A stretch of 64,000 nucleotides of DNA from Raillietiella orientalis (lineage: Eukaryota). How positions within the stretch are numbered: position 1 is the stretch's first letter; every line of letters starts with the position of its first letter. The notes below the pieces were generated by a model. That model saw only the letters and a list, made by a program, of their open reading frames with translations. It did no database searches and was not told where the DNA came from. The translations under genes were made by a program, and so were the position numbers. This document shows positions 36,665 to 60,526 of the stretch, piece by piece. The stretch spans positions 1 through 64,000 of the forward strand of contig JAYWIR010000075.1 in the NCBI GenBank assembly GCA_036172245.1, written 5' to 3'.

Positions 36665-36705
36665 CGTCGTCGAACGCATTCCCGATGTTGCCGAACGCTG
36701 CCAGA
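36665..36705 (+). mobile_element. 41-bp piece of family A ORF1 at the 5' junction of E2
   Basis: 40/41 identical to 44570-44610 (VVERxPDVAERCQ). Confidence 0.85.
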
Positions 36706-38194: not shown

Positions 38195-38425
38195 CGTAAG
38201 CCGAGACTGCAGGCGTACAGGGACAATCGCACGGCAGGTGCGCCAGAGTCTCCCTGTACGCTCTCAGCACCAATTCGACAGAGGCTCTGAAGAACAAGCG
38301 GCTCAGGCTGTGTCCCTGCCGTATGCCGCGTCGCACCAGTACGCCGTGTACGGTATGCCCGCTGAAAAAACGTTACTAACGCGCCACAGCAGCCGTCCAG
38401 CTGAGATCGGTTCGATCTCCCGGGC
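38195..38425 (-). mobile_element. Degraded RT fragment (X), outermost visible layer of the right cluster
   Basis: Reads GIRQGHSLSRL..ELVLRAYRETLAHLP..TPAVSAYA on the minus strand. Confidence 0.75.
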
Positions 38426-38430
38426 TCGTA

Positions 38431-41314
38431 CAGTGCAGACGTGTTTTCCCGTCTCTCCATGCCCGCGATCGAGCATCTTTGTGCCTGCGTTTTCGCCCGC
38501 ACTTTTGTGTTTCTGTGAAGTAGTTAAAGCAGCGTTGTGCAACATGGCCAATTCTCAGAATAGTGTGGAGGAGCAAGCCACTAAATCCACTTCCAATGGA
38601 CTGGAAGCGGCCGCATCCTCCGTGACGGTTTCCTCGCCTTCGGTGAGGAGCTACGCCGCCGTTACCTCCCAAAGACCAGGACCCTGCGATGCGGAGTTGC
38701 AGGCTTATGTGGCATCCGGCTACATGCCCGCACTCCGTTATAAGGTCAGTGGGCCCCTTAACGGGAGGACCGGGCGTGAGCTCAACGATGAGCTCGTCCG
38801 GATCGGCGTTCGGGAGGAGGAGCTCCTTGCCATCATGCCTGCGGGCAGGATGGAATACACAAAGATACGGTGCAAAAACGCGGCACTTGTGCAGCGTCTT
38901 CGTACTCCGTTGTCCATCGGTGGCAAGGAAGTCCTGCCTTCCGTGATGGACGACTCGTTTGTCGTCCAATTGTGCGACATCGAGCCGGAAATCTCCGACC
39001 GCGATGTCGCAAGCTGCTGGCGAAGTTCGCCACCGTGCACGCTCTGTGGAAGACACCAAATTCTCTAAGGGATTTCCCCTCTGTCTACATTGGACAAGCC
39101 TCCGCGCGGATCACCGTCGCGAACAGGCGTGTTGTGCCTGAGCAGCTGCAGGTGAACGGCACAGTCGTTCACCTGTGGTTCATAGGCCAGACTCGCGCGT
39201 GCGAGCAGTGCGGCAAGGAAGGGCCAAGAATTAAGGAATGTCCCACCCCGAAATGCCGCTACTGCAAAGAAACCGAGCACGAAATCAAAAAGTACCCGGT
39301 ACTTGCGAAAAAAAGGGCAGCAGCGGAACTTCGTCGAGTCCAAGAGACCGAAGCACGAAAAGCCGCTGCACCCAAGAAAAAACCCGGTTCGCGGAGACTT
39401 GGCAGAAGAGCCAAGCAATACGCGACTAGGAAGCAAGCATTCCTGCTCGTAACGCTCCGAAAGGGCGAGATCACGGCAGGGAAGCCAATTAAAAAAGGGC
39501 GCGAATGTGCGACGCTTGTCATCCCCGCCGTCGCTGCCGAACTCGGGAGCACCTCCGAGACGAGAGTCAGAAAATCTCTGGAAAAACCTAGACCAAAAGG
39601 TAGGCAAGCAGGAAGATCGCAACAGGGCGAGCACTTCCTGAGCCATTCCGTTGTTCCTCCAGAGTTCCCCAGAGCCCCAATGTAATTCAGGGCCCTCTGC
39701 GAAGGCTACAAACGCCGTAAAATGCAGCGGCGCATTGCGCAAGAGCACTCTGCAGGCAGTCGCCCCAACGCCGACTCGGAAGCAACTGAGCAATCTCTCG
39801 ACTGCCAAGAAGGTGAATCCGTTGCAGTCTTTCGAAGGCGTAACGAAAGCAACGCCCTAGAGGCTGCAATGGAAACCGCGGAGGTTTCCGCGACTTCTGA
39901 CACGGAAGCCTCCGAAAATCGTGAAGGCTAATGGAAGGTTGTGGAGAGGAGAAAAGAAAAATTTCCAAACAAAGGTTCGCAATCTCCATCCCTGAGTCCT
40001 TCCAAGGCAAAGAACAGTCGTGTGAATAGAAAAACACGCGCGGCGGGTCCCTCTGTCTTGCATAAAGCCAGCGCCGTCGACGCGTGCAAGTCCGCCTCCG
40101 TAACCGCCGAACAGACGCGATCAGGTGGAAGCAGACGCACGATGATCGCGCGAGCATCAGACTCCGTAAAGGAGTCCGATAACGCAGCTGAACGACGCGT
40201 TACTCGCGCCGGAGCCAGCGCCCGCAGGGCTGAAGCCCTCAGGCGTGGCACACTCGCGGTGGAACGGCTAGTGCTAACCCTCGAACCAACAGGTTCTGCA
40301 CCCGGGGAGGAGCACTCAATTACGCGCAGCACGGTGGAGGCCGGTGCCGACCGCACCCTCCAGCCCGTCGTGCTGCTTACTGCCCGCTCGCCGGGTGAGA
40401 CGAGCACCACGGCCTTGCTTTCCCAGCCGTGATGAGGCAATCGCGTCTTCTCGTCGTGTTGCCGTGGCGTGCTGGAACGTCAACGGTCTCCAACACGACG
40501 AGAAGAGGCGACTAGGGGCTAACGCTCTCAACGCCTTCGACTTGACGCTCCTGCAGGAGATTCACAGCATCTCCGACGAGCAGGCTGCGAGATCGAACGG
40601 CGCGCGGGCGGAAGGCTACATTATAGGTGCAGCGTCGCACGTACGTGTGGCGTCGCTTTCCTCGTACGAGGAACTTTGGTGGGAGCGGTGCGCAGAGTTA
40701 GCTTCGACACGGAAGGCCGAGTGGGACAGCTTGTACGCAAGTGGTTCGACTCGATCGACCTTGTCGTAACGAACGTGTACACGCCGAGCGGCGCTGGGCA
40801 ATGGGCAGAAAGGATTGAGTTCCTCGGTACCGTTCGGAGCCAGTGGCTCACTCGTTCTCACTCTACTGTGGCGTATCTCATTGCGCGGGACTTTAACGTC
40901 CATCTGCTGACCGAGAATAGCGCACACAAAAGGGAAAAGTTGCTAGCGGAAGAGATGTGCGCGTCCGTGCACGCGTGCCACTTGTTCGCTAACGACCCTG
41001 ATATGGCGACGTCGCCGGACCATGTTTTCCTTGATGAACACTTGCACTGTCGAGTGAGTCGGAGAGGTCCCATGCCGTGCGTGCTTTCCGAACATAGCAG
41101 GCTCGAGTTTGAGTTGCTCCTTCCAGGCAAGGGGCCTTCAAACTGTGTATGGAGGATGCCGGCAGACTGGCTTAGCCGCCCGCAGGCAACGGAGCATTTT
41201 CGCCAGTACCTCCGCGGGTTCGCCACAGGTGTACTCTCGGACTAAGACGATCTGGAAAGATCGGTCAGCGAGTTCTGCTGCCGCTTTCCCTTGCACCAGC
41301 TTCCGCGAGGCTTT
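38431..41314 (+). mobile_element. LINE family D, 5' end, ORF1 (ATG 38544, disrupted) and endonuclease part of ORF2
   Basis: AGACGTGTTTT at 38437; RSYAAV; CEQCGKEG; TGATG at 40430; WNVNGL; cut by B' at about 41315. Confidence 0.88.
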
Positions 41315-43416
41315 ATAGTTGTCACATGGGTACGCCCGGGGTGTTTATTTGTAAAAACTCTACATCCGCGGTACGAGGCCCCGTTCACGGTCATAGGCAC
41401 AGGACCTGCCGGGACGCCGGGACGCAGCCCGGCGTGGCACTCCACGGCAGCGAAAGGGGATGGCGGAAAAACAAAAAGAAAATTAAAAATAAACAAACAA
41501 AAAGAAGTTGGAGGGCAGGGAAGGGATCACTGCTCGCTGTGAGGAGGGCCCATCCGTTGAACGAAGCCCTCGAGGTCCATCCGTATATTCCCCAGTTGGG
41601 GCCATCCGACAGCTCTCTGCATGGAGCGTTGAGCATATGGGATGGCATCCCTCGCGTGTGGATCCACTCCTTTGTTGTTGGTGTCGCTCCAGGCAGCCAC
41701 GATGCCTCGGACGCAGCACAGGGCTGCGATGGCTGCGGCTGGCTGCAGTGCGTCCTTCACAAAGAGGGACCGGAGAACGTCTCTGGGGGTACTGCCCGTA
41801 GGGAGATCGAGGGTCGTCCCGAACCGTTCCCAAAGGAAACGGAGAGCAGCACAGTCCGCAATAAGGTGGAAGAACGATTCCCGCTCTCCGCACCTGGCAC
41901 ACTTAGGATCCACAGCTCCCCTTGTCCTGTGGAAGCGGCGTGCGTTGCAGGGTAAACCCCAATGCAACAGCAGCAACGCCGACTTTTGCCACTTAAGGGC
42001 CAGGATCCTGAATTCTCTTAAAACCGGGGGCTACTTCAGCTCATCCATCGGGATGGCAAGCAGCTCGCCCCATCTCTGCAATCCTCACAGCTATACGCTC
42101 GGGATCGTGGCGTCCGCCAGTTCTCCTGTAGTCCAGCCGCTCAGCAACTTCTCACGTCCCGCGATGCAGCAGGAGACCTGCCACAATGGCGTTTGGCTGC
42201 TGTGAAGTGCCCTCCTCAGGAAGGGCAGCGCAGTAGCTAGACAGGTCGTCTCTGCCCACTTGCTTCTAGCGGGACTCTCGAGAAGATTCCGCAGCGTGCA
42301 ACGGGCGTGGTAGCTGCATCGGAGACGATTCCACGACTCTTGGCTCCGCTGGTTCACAACAGCCCAGGTGCCGATATTCTCTTCCAGCCAGGCGGAGAAG
42401 TTGGCGGGGCTGCAAACCATTAAGCTCTTCTCCTTCGCCAGGGTTACCATGCGCCCGAGCAGTAGGAAGCATCCTCTGATCATCCGGCGTGGGTACAGAA
42501 GAAAAGACGCGAGTCCATCGCACCGAGACAAACGGATGGCAAGGAGTCGGGCCGGAACGTACTAAGGGATGCTCCACATCTTCGCTGCGATGGCGAGGGT
42601 TCGCCATCGCAGCTGAATCTCCAAGCGCTCCAGCGTCAGGAGGCTGAGACCGCCGTCCCGATGCGGAGCGCACAAATCCATGAAACGGACTCGGGGTCTC
42701 CCGTTGCCCCAAAGAGCGATACGGAGGAGGTCCTTTGTTCGCTTTTTTATCCTCTCTGTGGGGGGGGAAACAAAAAGCAGGGGGCGGAGGAGAGGAGCCG
42801 CGAACGTGTTCCAAACCGCGGCCCGTTCAGGCAGGAAAAGCCTGCCGCCTCGCAACGGGCCGATCGCCGTCTCTACTTTTTGAAGGCAGCCGGACCACGC
42901 TTCCGCAGGGGAGTAGTCCCCAAACGGCACACTAAGATACTTGAAGTACCTAACCGTGGGGATTTCCAAACGGACCCAGTCCTCCTGCCCTGCCCATGTC
43001 ACACCAACTGGCACCACCAACGACTTCGCCTCGTTCTCCTGTAGTCCGGCGTCAAGGCTAAGCAGGTCGAAGAAATCTCCGACCGCCTTCGCCGGGGTGG
43101 ACATAGGTAAAAGGAGCAGAAGATCGTCAGCATAGGCTGCTACGGCGGGCGTGCAGCGGCACAAGCTCGGCAAGGGGGCCAAAGTCACCCTATACGCTCT
43201 CAGCACAAACTCAAAGTAGGTGCCAAAGAGCAGGGGACTCAGGCTATCGCCCTGCCTTATGCCTCGCTGCAACGACACACAATACAACATTCGACTGCAG
43301 AAAGAGATGCAGATAATCGCGTTCCTCCAGCAAGGTAGGTGATCAAGGAGGGTGGGAAGCCCATGCGAATAAGGATCTCAAAGAGGAGTTTCTGGTCACC
43401 GCAGTCGAACGCCTTG
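41315..43416 (-). mobile_element. LINE family B-like copy B', 3' half of ORF2 and 3' UTR
   Basis: C-terminus very similar to 59577-60308; begins at the KAFDC motif where A1 is joined. Confidence 0.9.
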
Positions 43417-43440
43417 CGTGCGCCAGGGTGGACGTGTTTT
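43401..43440 (+). promoter_or_regulatory. Inr/DPE-like core promoter spanning the A1 junction (also 47538-47573, 7746-7711, 48932-48967, 560-525)
   Basis: GCA(+1)GTC with A at 43403 and GGACGTG starting at 43430, i.e. +28. Confidence 0.6.
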
Positions 43441-45443
43441 CTCGGTGCTCCTCGTGCCAGGAAATCTCCCCCAGTACAAGCGTCGTGTGGTTCGGTGGTA
43501 GATCAGGCGGCGATGCCTGACGCAACCACCAGGGATGGCCAGAGAACAGCGGCAACGCCGCCCCCAGAGGCGATGGAGGTGGGGGCATCCGCCCCCACAG
43601 AATCAATCCCCGCTGCAGCGCGGGCGTGGAGCGCCGTTGTGTCGGCGCCATCGCCTACAGCCGCGGCGGAATTGTCGGCCTATGTAGAGGAGGGCTACAA
43701 CCCCTCATTGTTCTACAAGGTAGGCAATCTATATTCTTTAGAGAGCGCGCGCGCCTTCTAAAAGGGCATGCACGCTCTCGATGTGAAAGAGGAGGAGCTC
43801 AGCGCTATGATCATTCGCAGCAGGGGTCAGTACGTTGAGGTCATCTGCAAACAAGCAGAGCTGGCCCAACGACTGCTTAAAACCCCCGTTGTGATGGGGA
43901 CCCGCAGGCTCCTCCCCACTACGGCGGACCGCAGCATTGTGGTCCACCTGTTAGGCGTAACCGCGCGAATGCGCAAAGAACAGGTTCGCGCCGCTCTGGA
44001 ACAGTTTGGAACCGTCCACGCGCAGTGGACGAAAGTTAGTCCTTTCGAGGACTACACGGAGCTGCAACACGGCCTCACGGCTGCGCGCGTGACCGTTCGG
44101 GAGGGCTGCACCCTACCCCACAAACTGGTGGTCGAAGGCGAAACCGTCGACCTCTGGTATGTGGGGAAGCCGAAATACTGCGGCTTCTGCAATACGTCGG
44201 GCCACCTCAAAAAGAGGTGCCCAACGTGCAGTGCCAAGTATGCGGCACAATGGGTCACACGAGGGAGGTGTGCCCAAAAGCAGCAGTGCGGGTGGTTTCC
44301 AAGAGAAACCTTAAAAAACGCGCCCGGCTGCTGCAGAAAAAGCTGGCGGCGGAAGCTGCCGCGAAGGCTGTGCCACCCGCGCCCAAGGCCCAGGCCGCAC
44401 CCGAGACTTCAGCGAACAACGCCGAACAAGTAGAGGGAACTAGCCAGGAGCCTGGGTGGTAGGTGGCTACGGCCAAAAAATCAAAGAAGTAGAGGAGATT
44501 GGAGAAAAAAATCGCCTACCAACAGAACAAGAAAGAGCAGGGTAGCACGATAATTAAAGAGTACAGCGTCGTCGTCGAACGCGTTCCCGATGTTGCCGAA
44601 CGCTGCCAGAAAGAACTCGCCCCTACCGACGACCTCCCCTCTGTTGACTTTGTCAACAGCGAGGGGAGCGAGCCGGCGGCGGCGTCCGTCATCGACACCA
44701 CCATCGATGACGTAGCCTTCGCGCGAGCTGCGGAGGAACTGGCAGCCTCGTTGCAGCCAGAACCCTCCAAGGCTGGCAAGAAGGCCGTAAGGCGTCCGGC
44801 CTCCCCTCAAGAGTCTCCCACTTCCGACTCCGAGGTAGAGACCGGAAGCGCAGCCTCCGTTTCCACGGCACCGCGCAAGAAGGCTGGACGTAATTCCACA
44901 AAGCAAAGGAGGTTCGTCTCCCCCGTCGAAGGGGAAGAGATGGCTTCCGCAAGCGAGGGTGCCATGAGCGTGGGAAACTATCAAGACCCGTCGCTCGAGA
45001 GACTCCCAAGCGCGGACACGGAAGGGATGCAAGGGGTGGAGGCCGATCAGTGCCTCAGGTGCCTGAGAAGGCCTACACCTTCATGGACATCCCGCCCGCC
45101 TCGCAAGAGACGGGCACCCCCACACCTTAATCTTCCCAGCAGTAATGCCGAAAATCTCCTTCTGCCGTCGTCTGCGCATCGCCGTTTGAAACGTGAACGG
45201 CATGACAGACGCCAGCAGGAGACGAGACATGGCCGCCCTTCTGGAGTCCTACGACCTTGCGCTGCTGCAGGAGATCCACGTGATCTCTGCAGAACAAGCG
45301 CAAGAGATCGAACGGATCTCCGAAGGGCGGCTGTGGTACAGGTGTGGGAGACCGAAAAGTTGCGGTGTCGCCTACCTACTTCGGCCAGCCGTCGAGGCTG
45401 CGGCTAGGGGCGTGCGGTTCGACGATTACGGTCGTGTCGGCCA
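43417..45443 (+). mobile_element. LINE family A copy A1, ORF1 (ATG 43513, disrupted) and start of ORF2
   Basis: GGACGTG at 43430; CCHC knuckle; TAATG at 45143; carries empty B and E target sites. Confidence 0.92.
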
Positions 45444-47553
45444 TTTACACCCGGATGTGCCGGGGCATTTATTTCTTTGAAATAAAAATACATGAAATGT
45501 CGCGTGGCGAACGCGAAGGTTCACCACTCCAAAACAGCTTGCTGGTTACCGGGTCAATGCCGGAAAGGTAAATTCCATGCGCGGGTATGGGAAATAAAGA
45601 AAAACTTAAAGAAACAAAAAGTTCAAATGTGGGTGGGGAACAAATGTGGTAGGGGTGGGAGGGCAAGGAAGGGATCACGGTGCGCGTGGACAGGTCCTCT
45701 AGATCCTGTTCAGGTTCCGCACAAGCTGAGTCCTTTCAGCGCCCAAGTGGCGCCACTTGCAGAGACTGCGCGCGAAAAGGCGAGTCCAGTGTAAGGCGTT
45801 GCCGGTTGGCTGACGCCTTCTTCTGGTGGCGTTACAACCCGCAACTATTCCTCTGATGCAGCAGAGGACTGCTACACTAGCTGGCGGGGACAAGGCGTCA
45901 CTACAGAAAAGGCGCCATAAAACGTCCTTTGGGACGCATCCGCGCAAGTCCAGGATAGCCGCGAGACGATCCCAGAAAAAGCGGACGGCTCTGCACTCAA
46001 GGAGAAGGTGCGAGAATGTTTCTTTTTCCCCACACCGGTCACAATTAGGATCCACAGCCCCCCGGGTGGTGTGGTGCAGGCGTGCTTTGAATGGTAATCC
46101 CCAGAGTACCACAATCAACGCCACATCCTGCCATTCCAAGGGGAGGGATGCACTGTTCCAGGACGCTGGGTGCCACTTCATCTTTTCCGGAGATAGTCCG
46201 AGTAGCTCGCCCCAGCGTCCAATTCCGTTGGGCGGGACACTCGGCGTCGCAGCGTCAGCTAGCTGCCGAGATATCCACGCCTTTATCGATTGTGTGCTGC
46301 CGCCTCTGGCGCAGGACACGGTCCATTTCCCCTGCTCGCTACTGTCCCTGGCATTCACAAGGAAGGGCAGCACTGGGGCGAGATGGGTTATCAAGGCCCA
46401 CAGAAGCTTGTCGTGGGACTGCACGATCTCCTGCAGCGTCCAGCGGGCGTGCCTTTTCATACACGTGTTCCTTGTGCCCTCCGGAACGTGGATCTTTCCC
46501 CAGGTGGAGACTCACTCGTGCAACCAGGCAGAGTAGTTCCCTGGGAGGCAGGAGATCCAGGCATTCTTCCGAACCGCAACGAAGATGCGTCGCAGCATAG
46601 AGCCACAGTGTGCTCTTCTGCAGATGCGCGCAGACAGAAACGACAAAGTCCGCCGGATCCTCAGGCTCGTTGGGCCAGGAGTCGTGCTGGGATGCACCAG
46701 GGCGTGTCTCACATTTCTGCCGCGAGGGCGAGAGTCCTAAACTGTAGTTGCACTCCCATGCGCTTCAGCGTAAGAACGCCAATTCCACCGTCCTCACGTG
46801 GAGCGCACAAGTCTTTGAGCATCACACGGGACCTCTTTTTGCCCCAAAGGACTGGCATCTGGAGGCCCGCTGCTCGTTTCCGAATAAAATAAGGGGCGGG
46901 CAAACAAAAAGTAGGGGACGGAGGAGGGAGGCCGCAAACGCGTTCCACACCGCGGCCCGTTTCTGCAAGTAGAACTTGCCTTCTTGGAACGGACCGATCG
47001 CCAACGCTGCCTTTTGGAGACGGTCGGACCAGGCTTCTGATGCGCAGAAGTCCCCCAAAGGAACGCCAAGGTAATTGAAGCACCTGCCCGTTGGGATCCC
47101 CAAGCGGATCCAGTCCAACCTCCAACCCATGCCGAACCGACAAAGACCATGGACGACTTCGCCCTGTTCACCTCCAGGCCCGTCCCGCGGCGCAGAAACT
47201 CGAAGTCCTCGAACGCACTCGCCGGGGTGGACTGGGGAAGCAGGAGCAGAAGATCGTCGGCATAGGCCGACACGGCAGGCGTGCCGGGACACGAGCTCGG
47301 CAGGGTTGCCAAAGTCTCCCTGTATGCTCTCAGCACCAACTCAAAGTAGATGTTGAAGAGCAGGGGGCTGAGGCTGCCACCCTGCCGGATGCCACGACGA
47401 ACCGGCACGCCGAACACGTGCCGGCCGCTGAAATTAATATTGATGAACGCGAAATGCCAGCAGGAGCGCAGGTAGGACTGGAGCACGGCCGGGAAACCCA
47501 TGCGTTCCAGGAGCTCCAAAAGGAGTTCCTGGTCGACGCAGTCGAAAGCTTTA
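45444..47553 (-). mobile_element. LINE family F, 3' half of ORF2 and 3' UTR
   Basis: QGGSLSP, YADD, CDRC..H...C; 3' hairpin at 45450-45464; begins at KAFDC where A2 is joined. Confidence 0.9.
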
Positions 47554-48947
47554 CGTCGGCTAGAGCGGACGTGTTTCCTCGGTGCTCCTCGTGCCGGGAA
47601 CCGTCCCTAGGTGTAGGCTTCGTGTGTGGTGGTGGTCGATCAGGCAGCAATGTTTGACACGACCACCAGTGCGTGTCAGGGGGCGGTAGCAACGTCGCCT
47701 CCTAAAGAAATGGAGTGCCAGGAGGCGGCGGCAACGTCGCCTTCAGTGGCGAAGGAGGTGGGGGAGTCCGCCCCCACAATACCGGTCCCCGCTGCAGCGC
47801 GGGCGTGGAGCGCCGTCGTGTCGGCGCCATCGCCTGCAGCCGCGGCGGAATTATCTGCCTATGTGGAAGAGGGGTATAACCCATCACTATTCTACAAGGT
47901 AGGAAATTTGTATTCTTCTGAGAGTGCGCGCGCCTTTTCGAAGGGGATGCGCGCTCTCGATGTTAAAGAGGAGGAGCTCTGCGCTATGACCATTCGTAGC
48001 GGGGGGCAGTACGTAGAGGTGATCTGCAAGCATGCAGATCTGGCCCAACGTCTGCTTAAAACCCCCGTGGTAATGGGGACACGCAGGCTCCTTCCCGTTA
48101 CGGCGGACCACAGTATGGTGGTCCACCTTTTAGGAGTTACCGCGCGGATGCGGAAAGAACAGTTACGCGCCGCGTTGGGAAAAGAAGGCACGGTCCATGC
48201 AGTATGGACCAAGCCTAGTCCTTTCGAGGACATTACCACAGTTCAGTGCGGCCTCACGGCTGCTTGTGTAACCGTTCAAGAGGGCTCTATCCTTCCCCAC
48301 AAACTGGTGGTCGGCGGAGAAAGCGTCGACCTCTGGTACGTGGGGAAGCCCAAATACTGTGGCTTCTGCAACACGTCGGGACACCTCAAAAGGAGGTGCC
48401 CCAACGTACAGTGCCTGGTATGTGGGACAATGGGCCACACGAGGGAAGTGTGTCCACAATCCGCTGTGCGCGTGGTTTCCGCAAGGAACCTAAAAAAACG
48501 CGCGCGGCTGCTACAGAAAAGGCTGGCGGCGAAGGCTGCCGCTCAAGCTGTGCCACCCACTCCCGTGGTCCAGGCCTCAGCCGACACCCTGGCAACGAAT
48601 GCCGAAAAGATCGACAAAAGCGGTCAGGTGTCGGAATGGCAAGAAGCCACAGCGAAAAAGAAAAAAAAGTCGAAGAAAGAACGACGAATTGAAAAAAAGC
48701 TCGCCTACCAAAATAAAAAACAGCAGGTTAGCGAGAATTTAAAAGAATGCAGCGTCGTCGTGGAACGCGTCCCCGCCGAACGCCGCAAGGTAGAAATCGC
48801 TGCTACCGACGAGCAACCCACTGTTGAAAATGTCAACAGCGTGGGGAGCGAACCGGCGGAAGCGTCCGTCATCGAGACCGTGATCGATGACGCCGCCTTC
48901 GAGCGTGCGGCGGAGAGCTGGCTGCATCGTTGCAGCCAGCCCCCTCC
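47554..48947 (+). mobile_element. LINE family A copy A2, left part (ORF1 from ATG 47650)
   Basis: Open ORF with two CCHC knuckles; resumes at about 60527. Confidence 0.92.
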
Positions 48948-51265
48948 GCGGCCAGTAGGAGGACGTGTTTTTCCTTCACTCCCCAAAGAGTAGTAGGACA
49001 GCGCTTTTTCTTCTGTGTGGTGTTTTGTGTACATCGTCGGTGTCCAATGGCCACGACGCCAGAGGACACCGCGATGGAGGTGGGAGTGGGGGAGGCTAGT
49101 TCTCCCCCACAGCCTACTGGAGCAGGGGCAGCCGCCCCGGAATCATCCCCGGCCACGCCGAGGACATGGAGCGCCATGGTGGCCGCGCCCAGCGCAGAAG
49201 CCATGGCGGAGATGGCCGCATACAAGGCCTCCGGGTACAAGCCGTCGCTTGTGTACCAGGTAGGCAACTTGTTCGACGGCCGGACAGCGCGCGCCTTCAG
49301 CAAAGCGTTGAAGGACGCGAATGTTACAGAGAAGGATCTGGACGGCCTCTCCGTCCTCAGCGGCGGGCAGCGGGTCGAGGTGGTCTGCAAAGATGTCACC
49401 TTGGCTCACCGCCTAATTCATGCGCCGCTGAACGTAGACGGCCGCAAGATCCTGCCAGTATCTATGGACCGCTCCGTGGTGGTCCACATGACTGGCATCA
49501 CCAGCCGCATGACGCGGTCAGCGGTTGGTGAGGAATTACGGAAGTACGGTGAGGTGCACGCACTGTGGCCGAAACCCTCCATTTTCGACGGCTTCGATAG
49601 CCTTTTTGGTGGGCAGGCTGCAGCGCGGGTCACCGTACGGGAGAATTGTGGGCTTCCCCACAGACTACAGGTGGCGCAAGAAAACGTCGACCTGTGGTAT
49701 GTAGGGAAGCCCCGGTATTGCGGGCATTGTGATACCGTGGGACACCTACGTAAAAGGTGTCCCAAAATACAATGCCATTTGTGCGGGGAGCGGGGCCACG
49801 TTCGGCGCGTGTGTCCCAAACGCCCCACCCCGGTTCCCCCTGCCGCGAAAAAAGCGCAGGGGACACGTGCTTCAAAGGTCTCTAGACCTAAAGTAGAAAA
49901 GGGCCAGCACAAGCTGCCAACACCTCAACCTCCGGCGCGTAAGCCGGAGGATAAACCTTCTGAAACGGTGGAAGGCGAAGAGGGATGGCAGCTTGTAGAG
50001 GCCCGAAAGCCGAGGAAACTCCCACCCGCGGAGAGCAAAGAGCGCAAGACGGCCGGTAAGCCGAAAAAACCCGGTCCGCGCTCGAAAACTTTGCGCGAGT
50101 GCACGGTGGCACTGGAACGAATCGTCGTTCCCGAGATTGCCACCCGGAGCGTCGATCCTCCCCTTGCCTTTTCCGCTGCGCCCGAGGCTCGCAACGGCGT
50201 ACCCTCTGTTTGCACAGAGGGTGAGCCGCGCGACATAGCGGCGGTCGAAGCCGCGCACGCCGCGTTCGCGCAGGCGGCGGAGGAGCTCGCAGTCACGCTG
50301 GCCGAGCGTGAGAACCCCTCGCGCAAGGCCGTGCGAAGGCCGGCTCCGGCGAGGAAGGCCCCCAAAGGTGAGTTAGACCTGGGGGCCGGAAGCACATCCT
50401 CCTCCTCGGAGGCACCCCCCAGAAAGTCGGGACGCAAGTCCCAGAAGCCCAGGAGGCGCCTCCCCTCCACCAGCGAGGAGGAGAAGACGGAAGCCGTCGC
50501 CAGCGTGGGAAATTCGGAGGAGGAATTCCCACGCTCGGAAGCCGTCGATGCGGCCACCCCCATGGAGGAGGGTGAACAGGGGATGAAGTCCCCCCTGCAG
50601 GCGCCGACCCTGAACAGCCCGCCCCCATGGAGGAGGGCGAACAGGTAGGCGCGACTCCACCTGCGGGTGATCCGGCCGACGCGCCGGCACCGATGGTGGA
50701 GGGGGACCAGGTGCCTTCAGCACCTGACCCCCCTGCTCCACCTAGCGTCCCGCCCCAGCAGGTGGCGGACGCCGCACTGCCATCTTCCCAGGAGTAACAC
50801 CTGGGCTCGCCAGTCGCCGTCGGATTCGCGCGGCCTGTTGGAATGTCAACGGGCTGCGCGACGACGGTCACAGGCGAGATACAGCCGACACCCTGCGGGA
50901 GTTCGACCTGGCCCTGTTGCAGGAGATCCACGTGATCACCGCGGCAGACGTCCAGGAGATCGAGACGATCGCGGGGGGTCGGCTGTACTGGCAATGCGGC
51001 ATCCGCAACACCTGCGGGGTCGCGTTCTTCGTGAAGCCGGCCATCGACGCTGCCGTGAAGGGCGTGCGCGTCGATGACGACGGTCGGGTCGGTCAGCTGA
51101 CTCTCGGCTGGTCGGACTCGATCGATCTGATCGTCACGAATGTGTACGCCCCAACCGGTCAAAAGGGATACAGCAACCGTACCAGGCTGCTTGAATCCTT
51201 GAAGCGCGACTGGCTGGCGAACACGAGCGTGCGGAAGGCTCACCTGATAGCGGGAGATTTCAATC
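48948..51265 (+). mobile_element. LINE family B full-length copy, left part (ORF1 ATG 49047; endonuclease up to GDFN)
   Basis: GGACGTG at 48961; CGHC..GH..C and CHLC..GH..C knuckles; resumes at 57173. Confidence 0.92.
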
Positions 51266-51342
51266 GAGTGCGGACGTGTTTTCTTCGCTCTCGTCTCCGT
51301 GCTTTCATCCGCTTCATCTTGGCGTCGTACATTTTGACGACG

Positions 51343-53266
51343 ATGTCGACCCAACTTGAAGCTACTGAAGTTGGAGGAACAGCATCCGGATCTGCAATCG
51401 CGGAACCGACGGCCGCCTCCACTTCGTCTTTCTCGCCAATGGAGAGGAGTTTTGCTGACGTTGCTGCCACAGCAGCCGTCAAAGGGAAACCACTCGACGA
51501 GTCGGAGGTGCGGGCATACGTAGCCCAAGGCTATAGACCTGCTCTCCGATATAAGGTGAGTGGTTTTCTTTCTGCGCGCGACGGGAATCAGTTCAACGAT
51601 GAACTGACGCGTGTTGGCGTGCGGGAGGAGGACCTTCTCGCCATTATGCCCGTAAAAGACATGGGCTATTTCAAGGTGCGTTGCAAAGACGCTGCACTTG
51701 TGCAACGTTTGCTGCGCACCCCGTTGTCGATCCGTGGCCAGAAGGTCTTCCCGGCCGCCATGGACGACTCATTTGTGGCGGAGATTTTCGACATCGAGTC
51801 GGAAATCTCCGATTTTGATATTCGGAACGCGTTGGCGAAATTCGCCACGGTCCATGCGCTGTGGAGGGTGCGTAGCAACCTCAAGGACTTCCCGTCCATA
51901 CACAGCGGAGTCGCTGGAGTCCGGCTTACAATGCCGGACCGCCGTCTGCTGCCCACCAAACTACAGGTGAATGACACGGTCGTTCACCTGTGGTTCGTGG
52001 GCAAAGTAAAAACGTGCGAGCAATGCGGGAAGGAGGGGCATTGTTTGGATAAATGCCCCTCTGGAAAATGCCGTTATTGCAAACTATCCGGGCACCAATT
52101 GAAAAATTGCCCGGATCTTTTGCGAAAAAAGGCAACCGCGGAGCTCCATTTTAAAAAACAAAGCGCGGATAAAAAGAAAAAATCTGCGAAAAACCTGGAG
52201 ACCCCACGGCAGAAATTCGGTAAAAACGCGAGGCGGAATGTCGCCCCAAAGCAGCAGGAAACCTCGCACGCGAAGCCCTGCGCACCCCCTCTCGCGGCAG
52301 GGGAGCCGCAAAAGAAAGGGTGCGGGGAATCCGGGGCAATGGTAAGTCCCCCTAGGCGCAATAGCTGTCCTTCCCCAGCACGCCCGGCTCTCTCGGAGTT
52401 CGAGCAACCGGCGGGGACGTCAATGGACAACGGCGGTAAGGACACTTCCAGTACCGTCAGATCCATTCCTTCACCTCCTGCAGTGGCTGAGAAGCCCAAA
52501 TCGGGTAAGAAGGGTTGTGCCGTGTCGACTTCGAAAGTCGGCAAAAAAAAAATCCGCGTCGCGATCCAACACCGCGAAAGCGGACAAAAATCTCACGCCG
52601 TCGCAGTCGGAGAGCAAGCTCTCGACTGGCGCGGATGCCATGCCAACGAAGGGATTAAAAGCCCTTCCGAAAGCAGCGTCCATGACGAGCGTGTCGGAGC
52701 CATCGAAAGGGCTCCCGTCCAAAGACGCGGATGGCTTCAAAGATGGCCATGGAGTACAATCTCCATTTACGGCGCCACGCGAAGTGAGGAACCGTAATGA
52801 AGTAAAGAAGACTTCAGCAAAGGTCCCTCGTGCAACTGCGCGTGAGCACGCTGAAAACGCGCGCGCCGGGAAAGCAGCCGTCACCAAAAGCGATGCCCTG
52901 GTGACGGAAAACGAAAACAGGACAGCTGTCAATCCAGCAGAACCTGTCACTGCTTCGCGGAAGGCCGAAATCCGATCGAACATGCGCCGGTCGGACTCCG
53001 AAATGGATGCCGTTCCGATCACCGAGACGAGGACAACTCGTTCGAAAGCGTGTGCGCGCCGATCAAAAGTAGGCAGCCAGGCAACGCTCGCCGCGAAGCA
53101 ACGCGAAGTCTCCACGAAACCCGACGGGGTTCAGCCTGGCGTGGAGGCATTACATGCATGCAGCACGACAGAGGACGGTGGCGACTGTCCCCTCCAGCCA
53201 GTCGTGCTGCTCGCAGTCTGCTCGCCGGATAAAGCGAGCAAAAAGCCGCCACCTTCCCAGCAGTAA
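51343..53266 (+). CDS. Family C ORF1 (two CCHC knuckles), with one +1 frameshift probably at the A10 run 52543-52552
   Basis: CEQCGKEGHCLDKC and CRYCKLSGHQLKNC; the downstream frame ends at the TAATG overlap. Confidence 0.82.
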
Positions 53267-56200
53267 TGCGGGGAATCGCGTCTTCTCGTCGTCTGTCCGT
53301 AACGTGTTGGAACGTGAACGGACTGCAGAACGACGAGAAGAGGAGATTAGTAGCCAACGCCCTGCGCCCCTTCGACCTCGCGCTCCTGCAGGAGATTCAC
53401 GTAATCTCCGACGAGCCGGCAGCCGAAATCGAGGAGCGCGCAGGCGGAACGCTACATTGGCGGTGCGGCGGCGCACACACGTGCGGCGTCGCGTTCCTCG
53501 TAAGAGGAAAAATGGCGGAAGCGGTGCGTAGTGTTCGTTTCGATGACAACGGACGGATAGGCCAGCTTGTCATCAAGTGGTCCGAGTCCATCGATCTCGT
53601 CGTTACGAACGTCTACGCGCCGAGTGGCTCTCGCTACCTCGAAGACAGAGTAGCTTTCTTTGGTGAGGTGCAGAGCCACTGGCTCAACAACTCCGGTTTC
53701 CAAGTGGCGCACCTCGTCGCTGGGGACTTCAACGTCCGCCTGCTCTCCGACGATTGGAGCCGCCCGAGGAAGCGCGCGCTGCCCATCGAGATGTGCGCGT
53801 CCGTGCACGCCGCCAACTTGATGGTCAGCGAACCTGGAATGGAAAGATCGCTCGATCACGTTTTCCTCGATGAAAACCTGCATTCGCGTGTGGGCAGGAG
53901 AGGAAGATTGTTGACTAGGCTTTCTGACCACCACAGGTTGGAGTTTGAGATCCTTCCGCCAGGCAGGGGGCCTCCGTTGCAAAACTGGAGGATGCAGGCG
54001 GATTGGCTTAGCCAACCGGAGGCTGCGGAGCATCTACGTGGATACCTCCGAGGCTTTGCCATTCAAGAACTTGCGGACTGGGACGATCTCAAAAGATCAG
54101 TCCGCGAGTTCTGCTGCCAATTCCCCTTGCACCGGCTTCCACGCGGTTTCGGAGAGGGCGTGGCCAACAGTAGAGACTTTCTGCAGGCCCGCACGTTTTC
54201 GAGACGCGCGGATGTCGGGCGTCTCGCAGAGTACAAGGCGAGGGCCGAGCGCCAGGTCTGGCAGTCCGGAGCAGCATGCCTGTTGGACGACAAAGGCCAG
54301 GAATGTTCGGCCCCAGCCGAAGTACGCCGCATTGTGAGACGCTACTACTCCTCGCTCTACGCGGATTCCCCGACGGAGGATATTCTTTCTGAGATACTCC
54401 TGTCTCAGGATGCTCGTGTTGTCGGCGAGGAGGACCGCGAACGTCTCGACGAGCCCTTCACGGCGGATGAATTTTCGTCCGCCATCGCTGGGCTGAAGAG
54501 ACGAAAGGCGCCAGGCGAGGATGGGCTCCCTGCAGAGTTTTATCAGTGCTTTGCAGTGGAGCTCATTCCTTTGATGCTGATACTCGCGACGCTGATGAGT
54601 GAATCCGGGAATGTCCCTGATTCCTTCCGCTCAGCGAAGGTGCGTCTCCTGCCGAAAGGCGGAGACTTGCGCCAACTTAACAACTGGCGTCCGATCACCT
54701 TGGTGAACTCGGACGTCAAGTTGTTTTCCAAGCTGTGGGTCGCGCGGCTAGGAAGAATCGCGGAATCTGTGGTGAGCCCGGAACAAACCTACGCGATTCC
54801 GGGACGATCCATGGAGGCGAACATCCTTTTCGCGCGTACATGGATGCAGCTGCAGGAAGTTGTGGCGCAGCAAAGCCAGGCTGCTGCGAAAGTCACTGCC
54901 GCAGGCAAAAAGAACAGGCGCCGACGGCAGGAGGGAACGCCAGGTGCCTTGGCGGTTGCGGTCGATCTCCACAAGGCGTTCGACTGCGTAAACCAGAAGC
55001 TGCTTTTGGAGCTTATGGAACGCCTTGGGTTCCCGGCGCAACTCCTGCTGTATTTGCGCGCGTGCTGGCGCCACGCGCTAACCTGCATCACTTTTAGCGG
55101 CTGCCGCGTGTATGGTATTCCCGTTCGTAGGGGCATCCGACAGGGCGACAGCTTAAGCCCGTTGCTCTTCAGCATCTTCTTTGAGTTGGTGCTAAGAGCA
55201 TACAGGCTGACGCTGTCTCACTTGCCAAGCTCCTGCCCGGGAACGCCTGCCGTGGCCGCCTACGCTGATGACCTGCTTCTTCTGCTCCCCATGTCCACCC
55301 CGGCGTCCAGTGTCGAGGATTTCTTCGACCTGATTCGTCGGGGAGCTGGCGTGAGCGTGAACAGAGAGAAGAGCGTGGTCGTTCCTGTGGGTACGTCGTG
55401 GGAGGGGCAGTCCGACTGGATCCGCCTGGGGATCCCCACGGGCGGGTACTTTAAGTACCTCGGCGTTCCGTTGGGCGCTTTCGGCGCAGCCGAAGCGTGG
55501 GCGGACTGTCTTCAGAAAGCAGAGTTGGCCATCAGCCCGTTCTTTAACGGCAAGTTTACCTTGCAGGAACGGGCGACTATTTGGAACACCTTTGTGGCCC
55601 CTCTCCTCCGTCCCCTGTTTTTTGTTTTGGACCCCCCCTATGCGGCAAAACAGCGGGCTAAGCGCCTGCTCAGGAACGCTCTCTGGGGTCCGGCGAGATC
55701 CAGGATCCGCCTTAAAGATTTGTCAGCTCCGCGTCGGGATGCTGGTTTGGGTATCCTGACAATGGAGCGAATCGGACTGCAGGTGCAGTTCCGACTGCTG
55801 GCACTGTGTGCCCAGCTATGGACATCCCCCCTGTGTGTGCCAGCTCGCATTCTCCTGCGGAGATGCGCCGGCAGCGGAGGATTTCTCTCGCTTTTGCCGG
55901 GCACTCAATACAGGAAGCGGGGTTTCGGATTTCCATTGCGGCAGTTGACCGCACTTCTGGAAGCACACTCTTGGATCTCCTGCCGCCCAATGAACTTTGA
56001 AGCTTGGCGGCAGGAGTCTGTTGAATCCTGGGCGGCGTTCCAAGGAATACGCCCTGAAGATCTTCGCCCCCTGCGCCAATTTTTTCCACGATCCTTGGAA
56101 GAAGTACTGCGGGACGAGGTGAAGTTTTCTACCCTGGCTGCCACGCCTCTTGCCGCAGCGCTGTCTGCCCTCAGAGCAAGAAACGACAGTTACCAACCGG

Positions 56201-56859
56201 CGAGGTGGGAGGTTTCCTGCACGATAGCGGGAAGAACCAAACTCCTTGGCACCTGGAAGACAAGTGAGTTGGCGGACGCCGCCACTCCTCGTGCTACTGC
56301 AAAGGGACTTCTCCGGTGGGCAGAAGAACTTGCTGTCACCCCCGAAGAACTTGTAGTCCCTCCACAGTGTATGGACAGTTCGCTGCTCCCCCTTGCTTGG
56401 AAACAAGCCGTGCTGCTTTTCGTTCACTGGGGTTTTCAGTGCAACGAGCGTTGGCATCGTGACTCCGGGGGACTTGCGTCTGCGAACTGCGTTCGGTGCG
56501 GATCGACGGAGTCGATTCCGCACCTACTTCTGGACTGCGGTGTCCTACAAGGACTGTGGCGTAGGCTGGCAACAGCACTATTGCATCCCGTGGACACCTC
56601 AAGAGACTTGCTGCGACGATTCTTCACGCCGAGCGGGCTTTCAGTAAGCGCAAGGATTGCAACCATCGGTTGCATACGCGCGATAGTTTCCGTCCGCCAG
56701 GCGTTGGTACTCAACGGACAGTACCAAGAGGTAATCAGCAAAGCATCCTTCTACATGGGAGCATCCGCTAGATGGCCTCATTTGACAGAGGAGACAAAGA
56801 GGAATCTCGCCGCAATACACCGCCGGTTTACACACCCTCATCAGCGGCCAACCCGGTGA
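53266..56859 (+). CDS. Family C ORF2, intact 1197-aa APE endonuclease / reverse transcriptase / Zn-finger protein
   Basis: WNVNGL, QE, YAP, GDFN, DH, SDH; KAPGEDG, WRPITL, DLHKAFD, QGDSLSP, YADD, YLG; CVRC..H...C. Confidence 0.96.
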   Translation: MRGIASSRRLSVTCWNVNGLQNDEKRRLVANALRPFDLALLQEIHVISDEPAAEIEERAGGTLHWRCGGAHTCGVAFLVRGKMAEAVRSVRFDDNGRIGQLVIKWSESIDLVVTNVYAPSGSRYLEDRVAFFGEVQSHWLNNSGFQVAHLVAGDFNVRLLSDDWSRPRKRALPIEMCASVHAANLMVSEPGMERSLDHVFLDENLHSRVGRRGRLLTRLSDHHRLEFEILPPGRGPPLQNWRMQADWLSQPEAAEHLRGYLRGFAIQELADWDDLKRSVREFCCQFPLHRLPRGFGEGVANSRDFLQARTFSRRADVGRLAEYKARAERQVWQSGAACLLDDKGQECSAPAEVRRIVRRYYSSLYADSPTEDILSEILLSQDARVVGEEDRERLDEPFTADEFSSAIAGLKRRKAPGEDGLPAEFYQCFAVELIPLMLILATLMSESGNVPDSFRSAKVRLLPKGGDLRQLNNWRPITLVNSDVKLFSKLWVARLGRIAESVVSPEQTYAIPGRSMEANILFARTWMQLQEVVAQQSQAAAKVTAAGKKNRRRRQEGTPGALAVAVDLHKAFDCVNQKLLLELMERLGFPAQLLLYLRACWRHALTCITFSGCRVYGIPVRRGIRQGDSLSPLLFSIFFELVLRAYRLTLSHLPSSCPGTPAVAAYADDLLLLLPMSTPASSVEDFFDLIRRGAGVSVNREKSVVVPVGTSWEGQSDWIRLGIPTGGYFKYLGVPLGAFGAAEAWADCLQKAELAISPFFNGKFTLQERATIWNTFVAPLLRPLFFVLDPPYAAKQRAKRLLRNALWGPARSRIRLKDLSAPRRDAGLGILTMERIGLQVQFRLLALCAQLWTSPLCVPARILLRRCAGSGGFLSLLPGTQYRKRGFGFPLRQLTALLEAHSWISCRPMNFEAWRQESVESWAAFQGIRPEDLRPLRQFFPRSLEEVLRDEVKFSTLAATPLAAALSALRARNDSYQPARWEVSCTIAGRTKLLGTWKTSELADAATPRATAKGLLRWAEELAVTPEELVVPPQCMDSSLLPLAWKQAVLLFVHWGFQCNERWHRDSGGLASANCVRCGSTESIPHLLLDCGVLQGLWRRLATALLHPVDTSRDLLRRFFTPSGLSVSARIATIGCIRAIVSVRQALVLNGQYQEVISKASFYMGASARWPHLTEETKRNLAAIHRRFTHPHQRPTR

Positions 56860-57142
56860 TCATTGCCCTACCCTCCATAAACTAAATTTGTATTTTCTTT
56901 TTACACCCGCGTCCCCATAGGCTCCGGAACATTTGAGGTGCTCATCGTTTAAATCCCCGTGAGTACGGAGCCTAGCCAAAAACCCTTTTCCCTTCCCTCC
57001 AGTTTTTGATTTTTGTTTGTTTCCCCTCATTCCCCCCACGCTGCGAGCGGTTTGTTTACCAGGCCTGCGTGGCGGTAATTTTTCTATGTTCTCTGTCGTT
57101 CTGTTGGTTGGGGACATTGTCCCTGACCAGTTTATTATTATT

Positions 57143-57170
57143 AATAAACGCCCCGGCGTGACCGGGTGAT
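57143..57170 (+). other. Conserved LINE 3'-terminal signal AATAAA-CG-C-CCCGG-N5-CCGGG-TG
   Basis: Found at seven element ends in the window (one degraded). Confidence 0.85.
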
Positions 57171-57172
57171 AA

Positions 57173-60100
57173 ATTTCAATCTCCGCCTGATAACAGGTGA
57201 GCCGGAAACACAGGTGAACGCGATGAACGAGTTGTGCGCCGCCATGCGTGTGCGCAACTTGTTCGCGGGTGAGAGGGGAATGGTCCGCAGCATCGACCAC
57301 GTCTTCCTCGACGCTGACCTGTGTTCACGGGTCGGCAAACGGGGGGGGGTTGCGTCAACGTTGTCGGACCATTCCCGGTTAATTTTCGAGATGCGGCCTC
57401 GCGACAAAGGACCGCCATCCAGAGACTGGCGTCTGCCGGGGGACTGGACGCGACTCTCAGGTGCGAAGGAACACCTTCGCGAATACCTGAGAGGCGTCAC
57501 GCTCCGGAATCTCCAAGACTGGGACCTTTTCAAGGAATCGGTCCGGGAGTTCTGCGAGCAGTTCCCCCTGGACCGCCTGCCCTCCGGATTCGGCGAGGGT
57601 CCTCGCAACCATCGGGCCTATTTACAGGCCCGAAGGTACGAGCGACCCCCTAATGTCCGTCGCCTGGCCGAGTACCGCGCCGGGGCCGAACGCCAAGCCT
57701 GGCAATCCGGGTCGGCCAGCTTGCTGGACGACCAGGGCCGGGAATGTTCGTCCCCGGCGTCGGTACGGCATCTCGTGCGGAGTTATTATTCCTCCCTTTA
57801 CGCCAGAGCGCCCCCGGATCAAGATGCCTCTCGGCTCTTGCTTCCGGATGGTGCCGCGGCAATAGGGGAGGAGGAGTCGTTAAGCCTCGATGAGCCTTTT
57901 ACCACCGGCGAAATTCTCGCCGGTATCAAAAGGCTCAAGAGGCGGTTAGCTCCAGGGGAAGACGGCTTGCCCGCGGAGTTCTATCAGAGCTTCGCGGAAG
58001 GGCTGGCGCCCCTGCTGCTTCAGCTGACAAGGCTGATCCGAGACGAAGGCGATGTTCCCGCCTCGTTTCGGTCAGCCAGAGTGAGGCTCCTTCCGAAAGG
58101 GGGAGACCTTAGGAATTTGAACAACTGGCGTCCGATCACGATTGTGAATACGGACGCCAAGTTGGTTGCCGGGCTATGGGCTTCGCGTCTGGGGCAGGTG
58201 GCAGAATCCATTATTAGCCCGGAGCAGACATATGCTGTTCCCGGGCGAAGTATGGATGCCAACCTCTTCTTCGCAAGCACATGGATGCACCTGCAGAGAA
58301 GAGAGAAGAAAGGGATAGGCAAAGTCGGCAACCCCACATTGGGGCCGCCAGCCGGGCTGGGAAGGGACTCCCGGGCGGGGAAGGGGGCCTTAGCGCTCGC
58401 AGTCGATCTCCATAAGGCGTTCGACTGTGTTGACCAGGGGCTTTTGTTGGAACTCCTGGGTCGCATGGGCTTCCCACCCTCCTTGATCAACTACCTGCGC
58501 TCCTGCTGGCGCCATGCGATAATTTCCGTCTCTTTCAGCGGTCAGAAGGTGCATGGCGTGCCGGTGCGGCGGGGCATCAGGCAGGGAGATAGCCTGAGTC
58601 CCCTGCTCTTCAGCACCTACTTTGAGTTGGTGCTGAGAGCCTACAGGGTGACTTTGGCCTCCTTGCCTAGCTCGTGTCCCGGCACGCCCGCCGTAGCAGC
58701 CTATGCCGACGACCTTCTCCTCCTGTTACCTATGTCCACCCCGGCGAAGGCGGTCGGAGACTTCTTCGATCTGCTCAGCCGTGGGACCGGACTGCAGGTC
58801 AACAGGGCGAAGTCGTCGGTGGTGCCAGTAGGTGCGGCGTGGGCAGGGCAGCAGGACTGGGTCCGTCTGGGGATCCCCACGGCGAGGTGCATCAAGTACC
58901 TTGGTGTGCCGTTGGGTGACTACTCCCCTGCGGAAGCGTGGTCCAGCTGTCTTCAAAAAGTCGATACGGCGATCGGCCCGTTCCTGGAAGGCAAGTTTCA
59001 CTTGCCGGAACGGGCCGCGGTTTGGAACGCCTTCGCGGCCCCCATCCTCCGCCCCTTGCTTTTTGTTTGCCCCGCCCCCAGACAATGCAAAAAGAGGACG
59101 AAGGACCTCCTCCGCATCGCCCTTTGGGGCAAGGGGAGGCCCCGAGTCCCTCTGCAGGACTTGTGCGCTCCGCGTCGGGACGGCGGCCTTGGCCTCCTGA
59201 CGCTGGCGCGCGTGGAAATCCAGCTGCGGTGGCGAACCCTCGCCATCGCAGCGAAGATGTGGAGCACCCCTTGGTGCGTTCCGGCCCGCCACCTCGCCAG
59301 GCGTGTGTCCCGATGCGAAGGACTCGCGTCGTTTCTTCTGTGCCCTGGCCGGAAGATCCGAAGATGCGGCCTTATGCTCGGACGCATAGCAACCTTGGCG
59401 AAGACGAACGGTTGGATGGTTTGTGGCCCCGCCAACTCCTCCGCCTGGTTAGAGGAGTCTGCTGGCACATGGGCTAAGCTGAACCGGAGGAGCGAAAACC
59501 ACATGAACTGCCTGCGAATCGGCCCATACGCCAACCGCACCCTGCGGGAAATACTGGAATTTCCTCGGAGTCGCAAGTGGGCGTTGACGACCCCCCTTCT
59601 ACGGCGATGCCCTACCTCCTGAGGGCGCTTCAGGATTGCCAGAAGCCGAGGTGGCAAGTCACCTGCCAGATCGCAGGCAGGAAGAAGATGTTAAGCGGCT
59701 GGACCACAGGAGAACTGGCGGACGCCACGACCCCGAGCGTCCAGCCGCGTGGACTAATGAGATGGGGCGAGCTGCTCGCCATCCCTACGGATGTGCTGAA
59801 GTGGCCCCCGGTATTAAAGGACTCCAGGATCCTGCCCCTTAAGTGGCAAGAGTCGGCGTTGCTTTTGTTGCACTGGGGTCTACCCTGCAACGCGCGCCGC
59901 TTCCACTGGACGAGGGGAGCTGTGGATCCTGCGTGTGCCAGGTGCGGGGAGCGGGAGTCGCTTCCCCACCTTATTGTGGATTGTGCTGCCCTCCGACCCC
60001 TTTGGGAACGGTTCGGGACGACCCTCGGGCTCCCTACGGGCAGCACCCCCAGAGACGTTCTTCGGCCCCTCTTCGTGAAGGACGCACTGCAGCCAGCCGC

Positions 60101-60526
60101 AGCCATCGCAGCCTTGTGCTGTGTCCGTGGCATCGTGGCTGCATGGAGCGACGCCAATAACGAAGGAGTGGGTCCACACGCGAGGGATGTCATCCCATAC
60201 GCCCAACGCTTCATGCGGAGAGCTGCCGGATGGCCCCAACTGGGGAATATGCAGACTGACCTCGAGGGCTTCGTTCGACGGATGGGCCCTCCTCACAGCG
60301 TTCAGTGATCCCTTCCCTGCCCTCCAACTTCTTTTTGTCTGTTTATGTTTTTTATTTTTATTTTTGTTTTATCCCCATCCCCCTTCGCTGCTGAGGAACG
60401 CTACGCTGGGCTGCGTCCCGGCGTCCCGGCAGGTCCAGTGCATATGGCCGTGAGCGGGGCCTTGTACCGCGGATGTAGAGTTGTTTTTTTAAAAAAATGA
60501 ACGCCCCGGGCGTACCCGGGTGTAAA
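57173..60526 (+). mobile_element. LINE family B, right part (ORF2 with one frameshift near 59590, stop 60308, 3' UTR)
   Basis: FN-LRLITGEP continues the GDFN split by C; terminal hairpin at 60505-60520. Confidence 0.93.

Follow-up and report, generated by a model that had tools for sequence, protein, structure and literature searches.

A stretch of 64,000 nucleotides from Raillietiella orientalis (assembly GCA_036172245.1, contig JAYWIR010000075.1, positions 1 to 64,000 of the forward strand; hereafter the window) was analysed with regard to the 5′ ends of the long interspersed nuclear elements (LINEs) nested in it. According to the original prediction, families A and B of these LINEs complete their promoter only at the correct insertion site, where the target supplies the initiator (Inr) and the element a downstream core-promoter element (DPE). 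Window composition divides the stretch into two GC-rich blocks (~55-62% GC; 1-14000 and 34000-64000) separated by an AT-rich block (~29-38% GC), and the GC-rich blocks are retrotransposons without long terminal repeats (non-LTR) that have two open reading frames (ORF1 and ORF2). All eight element starts in the window, from five families (A to E), carry the motif RGAC(G/C)TGTTYT (hereafter the box), and counting 27 nt upstream from the box's first G leads, in the five copies of A and B, to the A of a target-derived CAG. The window was mapped by self-comparison, tblastn and junction alignments, with the following result.

43416-45447, plus strand: A1 (5′ untranslated region (UTR), ORF1 and ORF2 amino acids 1-101), with an empty B site at 44768
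47553-48947, plus strand: A2, first part (5′ UTR and ORF1), resuming beyond B at ~60524-62369
7730 down to 6541, resuming 736 down to 545, minus strand: A3, split by E
48948-51264 and 57173 to ~60523/60526, plus strand: B, split by full-length C
544 down to 1, minus strand: B3
51265-57172, plus strand: C, full-length and intact, within B
737-6531, plus strand: E, full-length, splitting A3 ORF1 in antisense
~38404 to 41313, plus strand: D, 5′ boundary approximate
41328-43415, minus strand: X, 3′ half of a B-like LINE (ORF2 amino acids 570-1192), target of A1
45448-47552, minus strand: X′, 3′ half of a B-like LINE, target of A2
14000-34300, minus strand: LYST-like host gene, multi-exon, with BEACH and WD40 exons, AT-rich (~30% GC)

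Families A and B are target-specific. A is inserted in antisense at one exact point, between the codons for His and Lys in the reverse transcriptase (RT) motif DLH|KAFDCV, in three of three copies (43416, 47553 and 7730), and the RT genes hit are B-, C- or E-like, that is, from at least three LINE families; four empty A sites are present in the window (~54972, 58414, 36365 and 4464). Two E-type RT copies read GCTGTC where others have GCAGTC, and both are unoccupied by A. B is inserted at the end of A ORF1 in both copies, with a target-site duplication (TSD) of 5-8 bp with a CCTCC core, and A1 retains the empty site (44768). For A no TSD is visible in the window. The A and B copies represent independent site-specific insertions because the elements are far more alike than their targets: identity is 93.3% between A1 and A3 (1155 nt) and 67.0% between their adjacent 380 nt of target, the A1 target (X) being nearest B (83.7%) and the A3 target nearest C and E (77-78%), and it is 97.1% between B and B3 (543 nt) and 76.8% between the adjoining A sequences. 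The same comparison rules out that the X/A and A/B junctions are copies of one composite spread by segmental duplication or trans-mobilisation. All three A insertions (3/3) have identical, seamless junctions, and so have both B insertions (2/2).

C is located within the GDFN codons (GGAGATTTCAAT) of the B endonuclease, flanked by a TSD of 8-9 bp (ATTTCAAT; 51257-51265 and 57173-57181); it is known from one copy in the window and is at most a candidate for site specificity. E is flanked by the TSD ACGACAACG (728-736 and 6532-6540), both E 3′ junctions adjoin ACRACAAC, and the sequences suggest that E is also site-specific. A second E copy, 5′-truncated and 95% identical (34297-36664), has its end adjoining a similar sequence, ACAACAACC (34292-34300), and the following flank is alike. 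These LINE families specifically target conserved motifs in the coding regions (RT, endonuclease and ORF1) of other LINEs, a case of transposon-on-transposon parasitism; within the literature found on target-specific non-LTR elements, no description of LINEs that target such motifs of other LINEs was met with.

The 5′ ends of the eight element starts were arranged as follows.

43401-43406, plus strand: Inr-like GCAGTC before A1, with A at 43403; antisense of the Asp-Cys codons of RT motif KAFDCV
43417-43429, plus strand: A1 leader, followed by box GGACGTGT at 43430-43437; placed by alignment to empty sites
47538-47574, plus strand: A2, GCAGTC with A at 47540, leader from 47554, box at 47567-47574
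7710-7746, minus strand: A3, ACAGTC with A at 7744, leader, box at 7717-7710
48932-48937, plus strand: Inr-like GCAGCC before B, with A at 48934 (predicted +1); target is the end of A2 ORF1
48948-48960, plus strand: B leader, followed by box GGACGTGT at 48961-48968; placed against the empty site in A1 at 44768
524-560, minus strand: B3, GCAGCC with A at 558, leader, box at 531-524
51265-51279, plus strand: C 5′ end, leader of 6-7 nt, box at 51272-51279; predicted +1 (51245) is T
737-751, plus strand: E 5′ end, leader of 7 nt, GGACCTGT at 744-751; predicted +1 (717) is G
38404-38444, plus strand: D 5′ end, ~27-33 nt of apparently own sequence before AGACGTGT (38437-38444)

All five families open with the conserved box RGACGTGT and continue with a T-rich and a CTCC stretch. 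The box was scored against DPE consensuses of Drosophila and insect LINEs (RGWYV; RGWCGTKY), the window LINEs themselves being L1/Tx1-like: it agrees with RGWCGTKY at 8/8 positions in seven of the eight starts (GGACGTGT or AGACGTGT) and at 7/8 positions in E (GGACCTGT). A consensus of this type (A/G-G-A/T-C-G-T-G/T-C/T) is described in Doc, F, G, I and jockey at about +29 to +36 (PMC1636488), and a DPE at +28 to +32 is described in PMC4748587, where SART1, TRAS1 and L1Tc are added. The earlier likening of the box to a DPE is supported, as regards sequence, by this full match to the insect LINE consensus (as given in PMC1636488), and the box forms the core that is conserved among the 5′ ends of the five families. 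GGACGTG occurs 12 times in the window (5.6 expected), and six of these are element starts; RGACSTGTTYT with up to one mismatch occurs 15 times (7.0 expected), a count reached in 0/100 shuffles, and eight of the 15 are element starts. When the box motif string was searched in the literature, primer-like matches only were obtained, and a metagenome scan for the A-family 5′ block gave no matches.

Across the 5′ ends of the five families no long block other than the box is invariant, the remaining constant positions being three isolated C/T/C columns and a few scattered single ones. Between A1 and A2, the box and the next 26 nt differ at two of 34 positions, and the leader differs at five of 13 positions with its length of 13 nt kept; a leader variable in sequence yet fixed in length is the pattern expected of a spacer beside a functional element. 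These data bear on the explanation that the box has no function, being a remnant of common 5′ UTR descent, and that the CAG at −27 is due to chance. The box is invariant between families whose 5′ UTRs otherwise cannot be aligned, and within A it is conserved to a far greater extent than the leader beside it, both of which speak against this explanation; on the other side, the CAG observations amount effectively to one or two independent ones, and CA occurs at a given site with a frequency of 6%. We consider the absence of any function improbable.

The spacing given in the original prediction was reproduced in every copy. A1, A2, A3, B and B3 start 13 nt 5′ of GGACGTGT, with coordinates that hold in 5/5 (three A and two B copies), and the +1/+28 arithmetic is exact. 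By alignment to the empty A and B sites, the 14 nt flanking each element belong to the target and not to the element, so that the predicted +1 A is a target base, placed 14 nt before the boundary of the A or B element. The A boundary is good to ~1 nt, as A1 and A3 have a G before the leader and A2 has an A; this G/A variation recurs in the empty sites and is read as the His codon CAC/CAT in antisense. CAG, with its A at −27, is present at 5/8 starts. The hexamers of the A copies agree with TCAKTY at 5/6, 5/6 and 5/6 positions and those of the B copies at 4/6 and 4/6, and A2 has no CA besides that at −27 in the 45 nt upstream. A start at the first base of the element with both Inr and DPE inside requires 27 nt before the box, compared with 13 nt in A and B and 6-7 nt in C and E; D may have such a self-contained internal-promoter layout. 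As had been stated before, C and E have no A at the predicted +1 (T and G, respectively), and D has G there, with a degenerate TCGGTT, within its apparently own sequence, one base off.

Two other placements at the 5′ ends were tried and rejected. The first 17 nt of B (48948-48964) are identical at 9/17 positions to 44769-44785, the target immediately downstream of the insertion site, seven of the mismatches being transitions, but they are not a diverged target or a long TSD, since the intact target is present after the B 3′ end. The likeness may be due to chance or to an ancient capture of target sequence. An Inr within the leader (CCAGT or ACAGT) is inconsistent across families.

ORF2 of the window elements contains an apurinic/apyrimidinic endonuclease (APE) and an RT domain (Pfam Exo_endo_phos and RVT_1), and B ORF1 has a CCHC knuckle. 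The best solved relative of ORF2 is human L1 ORF2p (E 4e-45; R2, E 7e-16), and the L1 endonuclease was among its structure matches, from which the TRAS1 and R1 endonucleases were absent at E <= 0.001. The nearest database proteins are only ~25% identical and mostly unnamed or plant L1-like, several of them with zf-RVT, which is matched weakly in the window ORF2 (E 0.021). Elements A to E are accordingly designated L1/Tx1-like APE and RT LINEs, a label given from sequence likeness. ORF1 proteins of the five families are only ~30-60% identical; those of A and B are ~42% identical to each other and ~31% identical to that of C, and A and B are sister families.

The reading we prefer is that of a promoter split between target and element, a plausible and coherent hypothesis to which we give a probability of roughly 40%. 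The box would act as a DPE-type downstream core-promoter element, its most likely role, and RNA polymerase II would start ~27 nt upstream, within the neighbouring target, where the conserved target of A and B offers a CA(G) exactly at the start point. In four of the five families (A, B, C and E) the boundary is less than 27 nt from the box, which would place the start in the flank. The 5′ end of an A or B transcript would then carry 14 nt of target. Once target-primed reverse transcription had taken place at another copy of the target, the sequence complementary to these 14 nt could anneal to target DNA upstream and serve as primer for the second strand, and priming by the target-derived leader would give seamless, identical 5′ junctions. 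An animal host (judged from the LYST-like gene), the apparent spacing in D, which resembles a self-contained promoter, and the DPEs reported for the target-specific TRAS1 and SART1 and for L1Tc (PMC4748587) are also counted in favour of the split promoter.

The weight of the +28 coincidence must be reduced from that given by the original prediction, which had counted 5 of 5 insertions. All copies within a family sit in the same conserved target, which leaves two target types only, and these are related, A and B being sister families. The frequency at a given position in the GC-rich window is 0.062 for CA and 0.021 for CAG, and two hits among 4-5 families have a nominal P of 0.02-0.03 (CA) or 0.003-0.004 (CAG), before correction for post-hoc choices.

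Several further observations weigh against a split promoter. The 20-nt targets of A and B, just before the junction, agree at 9-11 of 20 positions, among them a GCAG at equal distance (when 20-mers were paired at random from the window, 1.8% of trials gave at least 10/20 matches), and the bottom-strand nick of B, as deduced from its TSD of 5-8 bp, would lie 5-8 nt downstream of the A of the CAG. The CAG may be an endonuclease recognition sequence inherited by A and B, and it is equally readable as such because the two are sisters with a shared GCAG in their targets. C, which is intact with ORF1 and a 1197-aa ORF2 (53266-56859), and E, which is full-length, possess the box and yet have no A at the predicted +1, so that not every family requires an Inr from the target; the G found there in D counts in the same direction, and the D boundary, drawn from decaying RT homology, is uncertain by ~10 nt or more. 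In the B flank, GCAGCC reaches only the 4/6 agreement given above, and other CAs put the box at +24 and +36. The 34-nt block conserved in A exceeds the length of a DPE and may serve another role, and in the literature found no DPE is documented for the L1/Tx1-like group.

The main rival explanation is that the elements have a conventional internal promoter or the box another 5′-UTR function. Transcription would then start at or just inside the first base of the element; the box, at a non-DPE distance (+7 to +14), would be a transcription-factor site or a signal in RNA or cDNA for element proteins; and the CAG, 14 nt upstream, would belong to the target sequence recognised by the related A and B endonucleases, its +28 spacing having no promoter meaning. 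The shared target positions with GCAG at the same offset, the sister relation of A and B, the few nucleotides between GCAG and the deduced first-strand nick of B, the want of an A at −27 in C, E and D and the 34-nt length of the A block all accord with this explanation, as does the extra motif copy reported nearer the start of the F element (PMC1636488). It is opposed by the distance of the box, which differs by family (7 vs 13-14 nt) and is odd for a position-dependent core element, by the 8/8 match to the DPE consensus, which becomes a coincidence, and by the identical seamless junctions in 5/5 insertions, which are less expected if the RNA starts at the boundary, by analogy with R2 as described in PMC3774820. 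We regard such an internal promoter as possible rather than probable.

The orientation of the elements bears on a third explanation, in which long RNAs starting far upstream, in the interrupted LINE or beyond it, are cleaved near the 5′ junction, as R2 is by its ribozyme of the hepatitis delta virus (HDV) type, and the box would belong to the processing signal. B within A and C within B are in sense orientation, and read-through is possible there; uniform junctions also fit an RNA that keeps target sequence (PMC3774820). However, A, D and E have the opposite orientation to the LINE that they interrupt and need a promoter of their own because they cannot ride its sense transcript. No Rfam family was found at gathering score anywhere in the window, and no ribozyme family at E <= 10 across 43300-51600. 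When the 5′ regions were folded from the predicted +1 with shuffled sequence as control, they folded no better than the shuffles (z −0.07 to −1.68, five sequences), and a fold of a three-sequence alignment showed little covariation. Ribozyme processing is thus without support, although a novel ribozyme may be conceived, and we consider co-transcription with processing to be a very doubtful origin of these 5′ ends.

If the promoter is split as preferred here, a wider reading can be put forward, which we hold to be unlikely: the window LINEs would form a guild that lives by insertion into one another's best-conserved coding motifs and has shed the Inr half, each element keeping the DPE and the target supplying the start, with only on-target copies transcribed and their leader guiding integration. 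D (self-contained), A and B (13-nt leader) and C and E (6-7-nt leader) would, as part of this reading, be stages of such outsourcing.

Other features of the window were as follows. X, X′ and a further B-like LINE, X″, have their 3′ ends in antisense within ORF2 of D (~aa 295), A1 (~aa 101) and A2 (~aa 487), respectively (junctions 41314-41328, 45447-45448 and 62369-62375), and the canonical B site in A ORF1 was not used; those of the three copies that are visible were each later interrupted by an A insertion. The 3′ ends compared (60495-60526, 57143-57172, 6503-6531, 41314-41345, 45448-45480 and 62367-62400) have in common AATAAACG followed by a GC hairpin, e.g. CCCCGGGCGTACCCGGG, without poly(A). 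The tail after the hairpin is short and depends on the subfamily (TGTAAA, TGATAA, TAATAA or ...CAACTATA), and the B 3′ end reads AAC G-hairpin-TGT(AAA), again without poly(A). Three stretches between mapped LINE pieces (36664-38150, 8223-9056 and 11682-12500) stand outside the families as mapped here, and the interval 36001-38000 has an intermediate GC content (0.48) and a strong GC skew (0.18).

One exon of the LYST-like gene is 60-63% identical to partial LYST of many animals, chelicerates being at the top, in a comparison in which proteins under 2000 aa were searched. An open host exon of 748 codons (29954-32200) was without detectable homologues, and a 720-aa host exon gave no match when compared with longer proteins. 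The contrast between this gene (~30% GC) and the LINEs (~60% GC) is extreme.

The insect LINEs with an Inr and a DPE (jockey, Doc, F, G and I; TRAS1 and SART1) offer the closest parallel to the box: they carry the same RGWCGTKY motif at the extreme 5′ end (PMC1636488, PMC4748587), the predicted spacing to an Inr-like CA in A and B is exactly +28, and TRAS1 and SART1 are target-specific like the window LINEs (PMC4748587). In the insect elements, the start is the element's own first base and the whole core promoter is carried in the RNA, whereas the box of A, B, C and E lies 6-13 nt from the boundary. The insect LINEs with a DPE are also Jockey-, I- or R1-like, and the window LINEs are L1/Tx1-like. 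If the split promoter is real, DPE-type LINE promoters would extend to the L1/Tx1-like group.

The Tx1-clade LINEs share with the window elements an L1-like ORF2 with APE and RT, a CCHC ORF1, precise recurrent insertion into repeats and short TSDs, and Tx1-clade and other target-specific LINEs have, as the window LINEs do, a structured 3′ end without long poly(A). Their targets, however, are RNA genes, microsatellites and DNA transposons, and those in the window are LINE motifs (DLHKAFD in antisense, APE GDFN and the end of ORF1). For SINEU/Tx1, the promoter is placed in the flanking DNA (PMC4494074), unlike the split core promoter proposed here. A promoter supplied from upstream sequence is likewise known from HeT-A as "promoting in tandem" (PMC1636488); there, the whole promoter lies in the 3′ end of the upstream element, and in A and B the core promoter itself would be divided.

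R2 is the precedent for the use of a target-derived leader, as upstream 28S target sequence retained at the 5′ end of its RNA, with which uniform junctions correlate, has been proposed to anneal and prime the second strand (PMC3774820), and the same logic is proposed here. R2 is co-transcribed by RNA polymerase I, processed by a ribozyme and equipped with a restriction-like endonuclease; the window LINEs are of the APE type, no ribozyme was found in them, and their 5′ end would be set by RNA polymerase II initiation. Initiation instead of ribozyme cleavage would then give a target-matching RNA leader as used by R2 in precise joining of the 5′ end. Co-transcription with the target can also strengthen target-specific integration (Kojima, PMC4494074). 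The self-reinforcing choice of target put forward in the original prediction is consequently an established concept, for which R2 gives the precedent as far as described in PMC3774820, and what would be new is a core promoter of RNA polymerase II divided between a mobile element and the site of its insertion, by which expression would be coupled to correct targeting.

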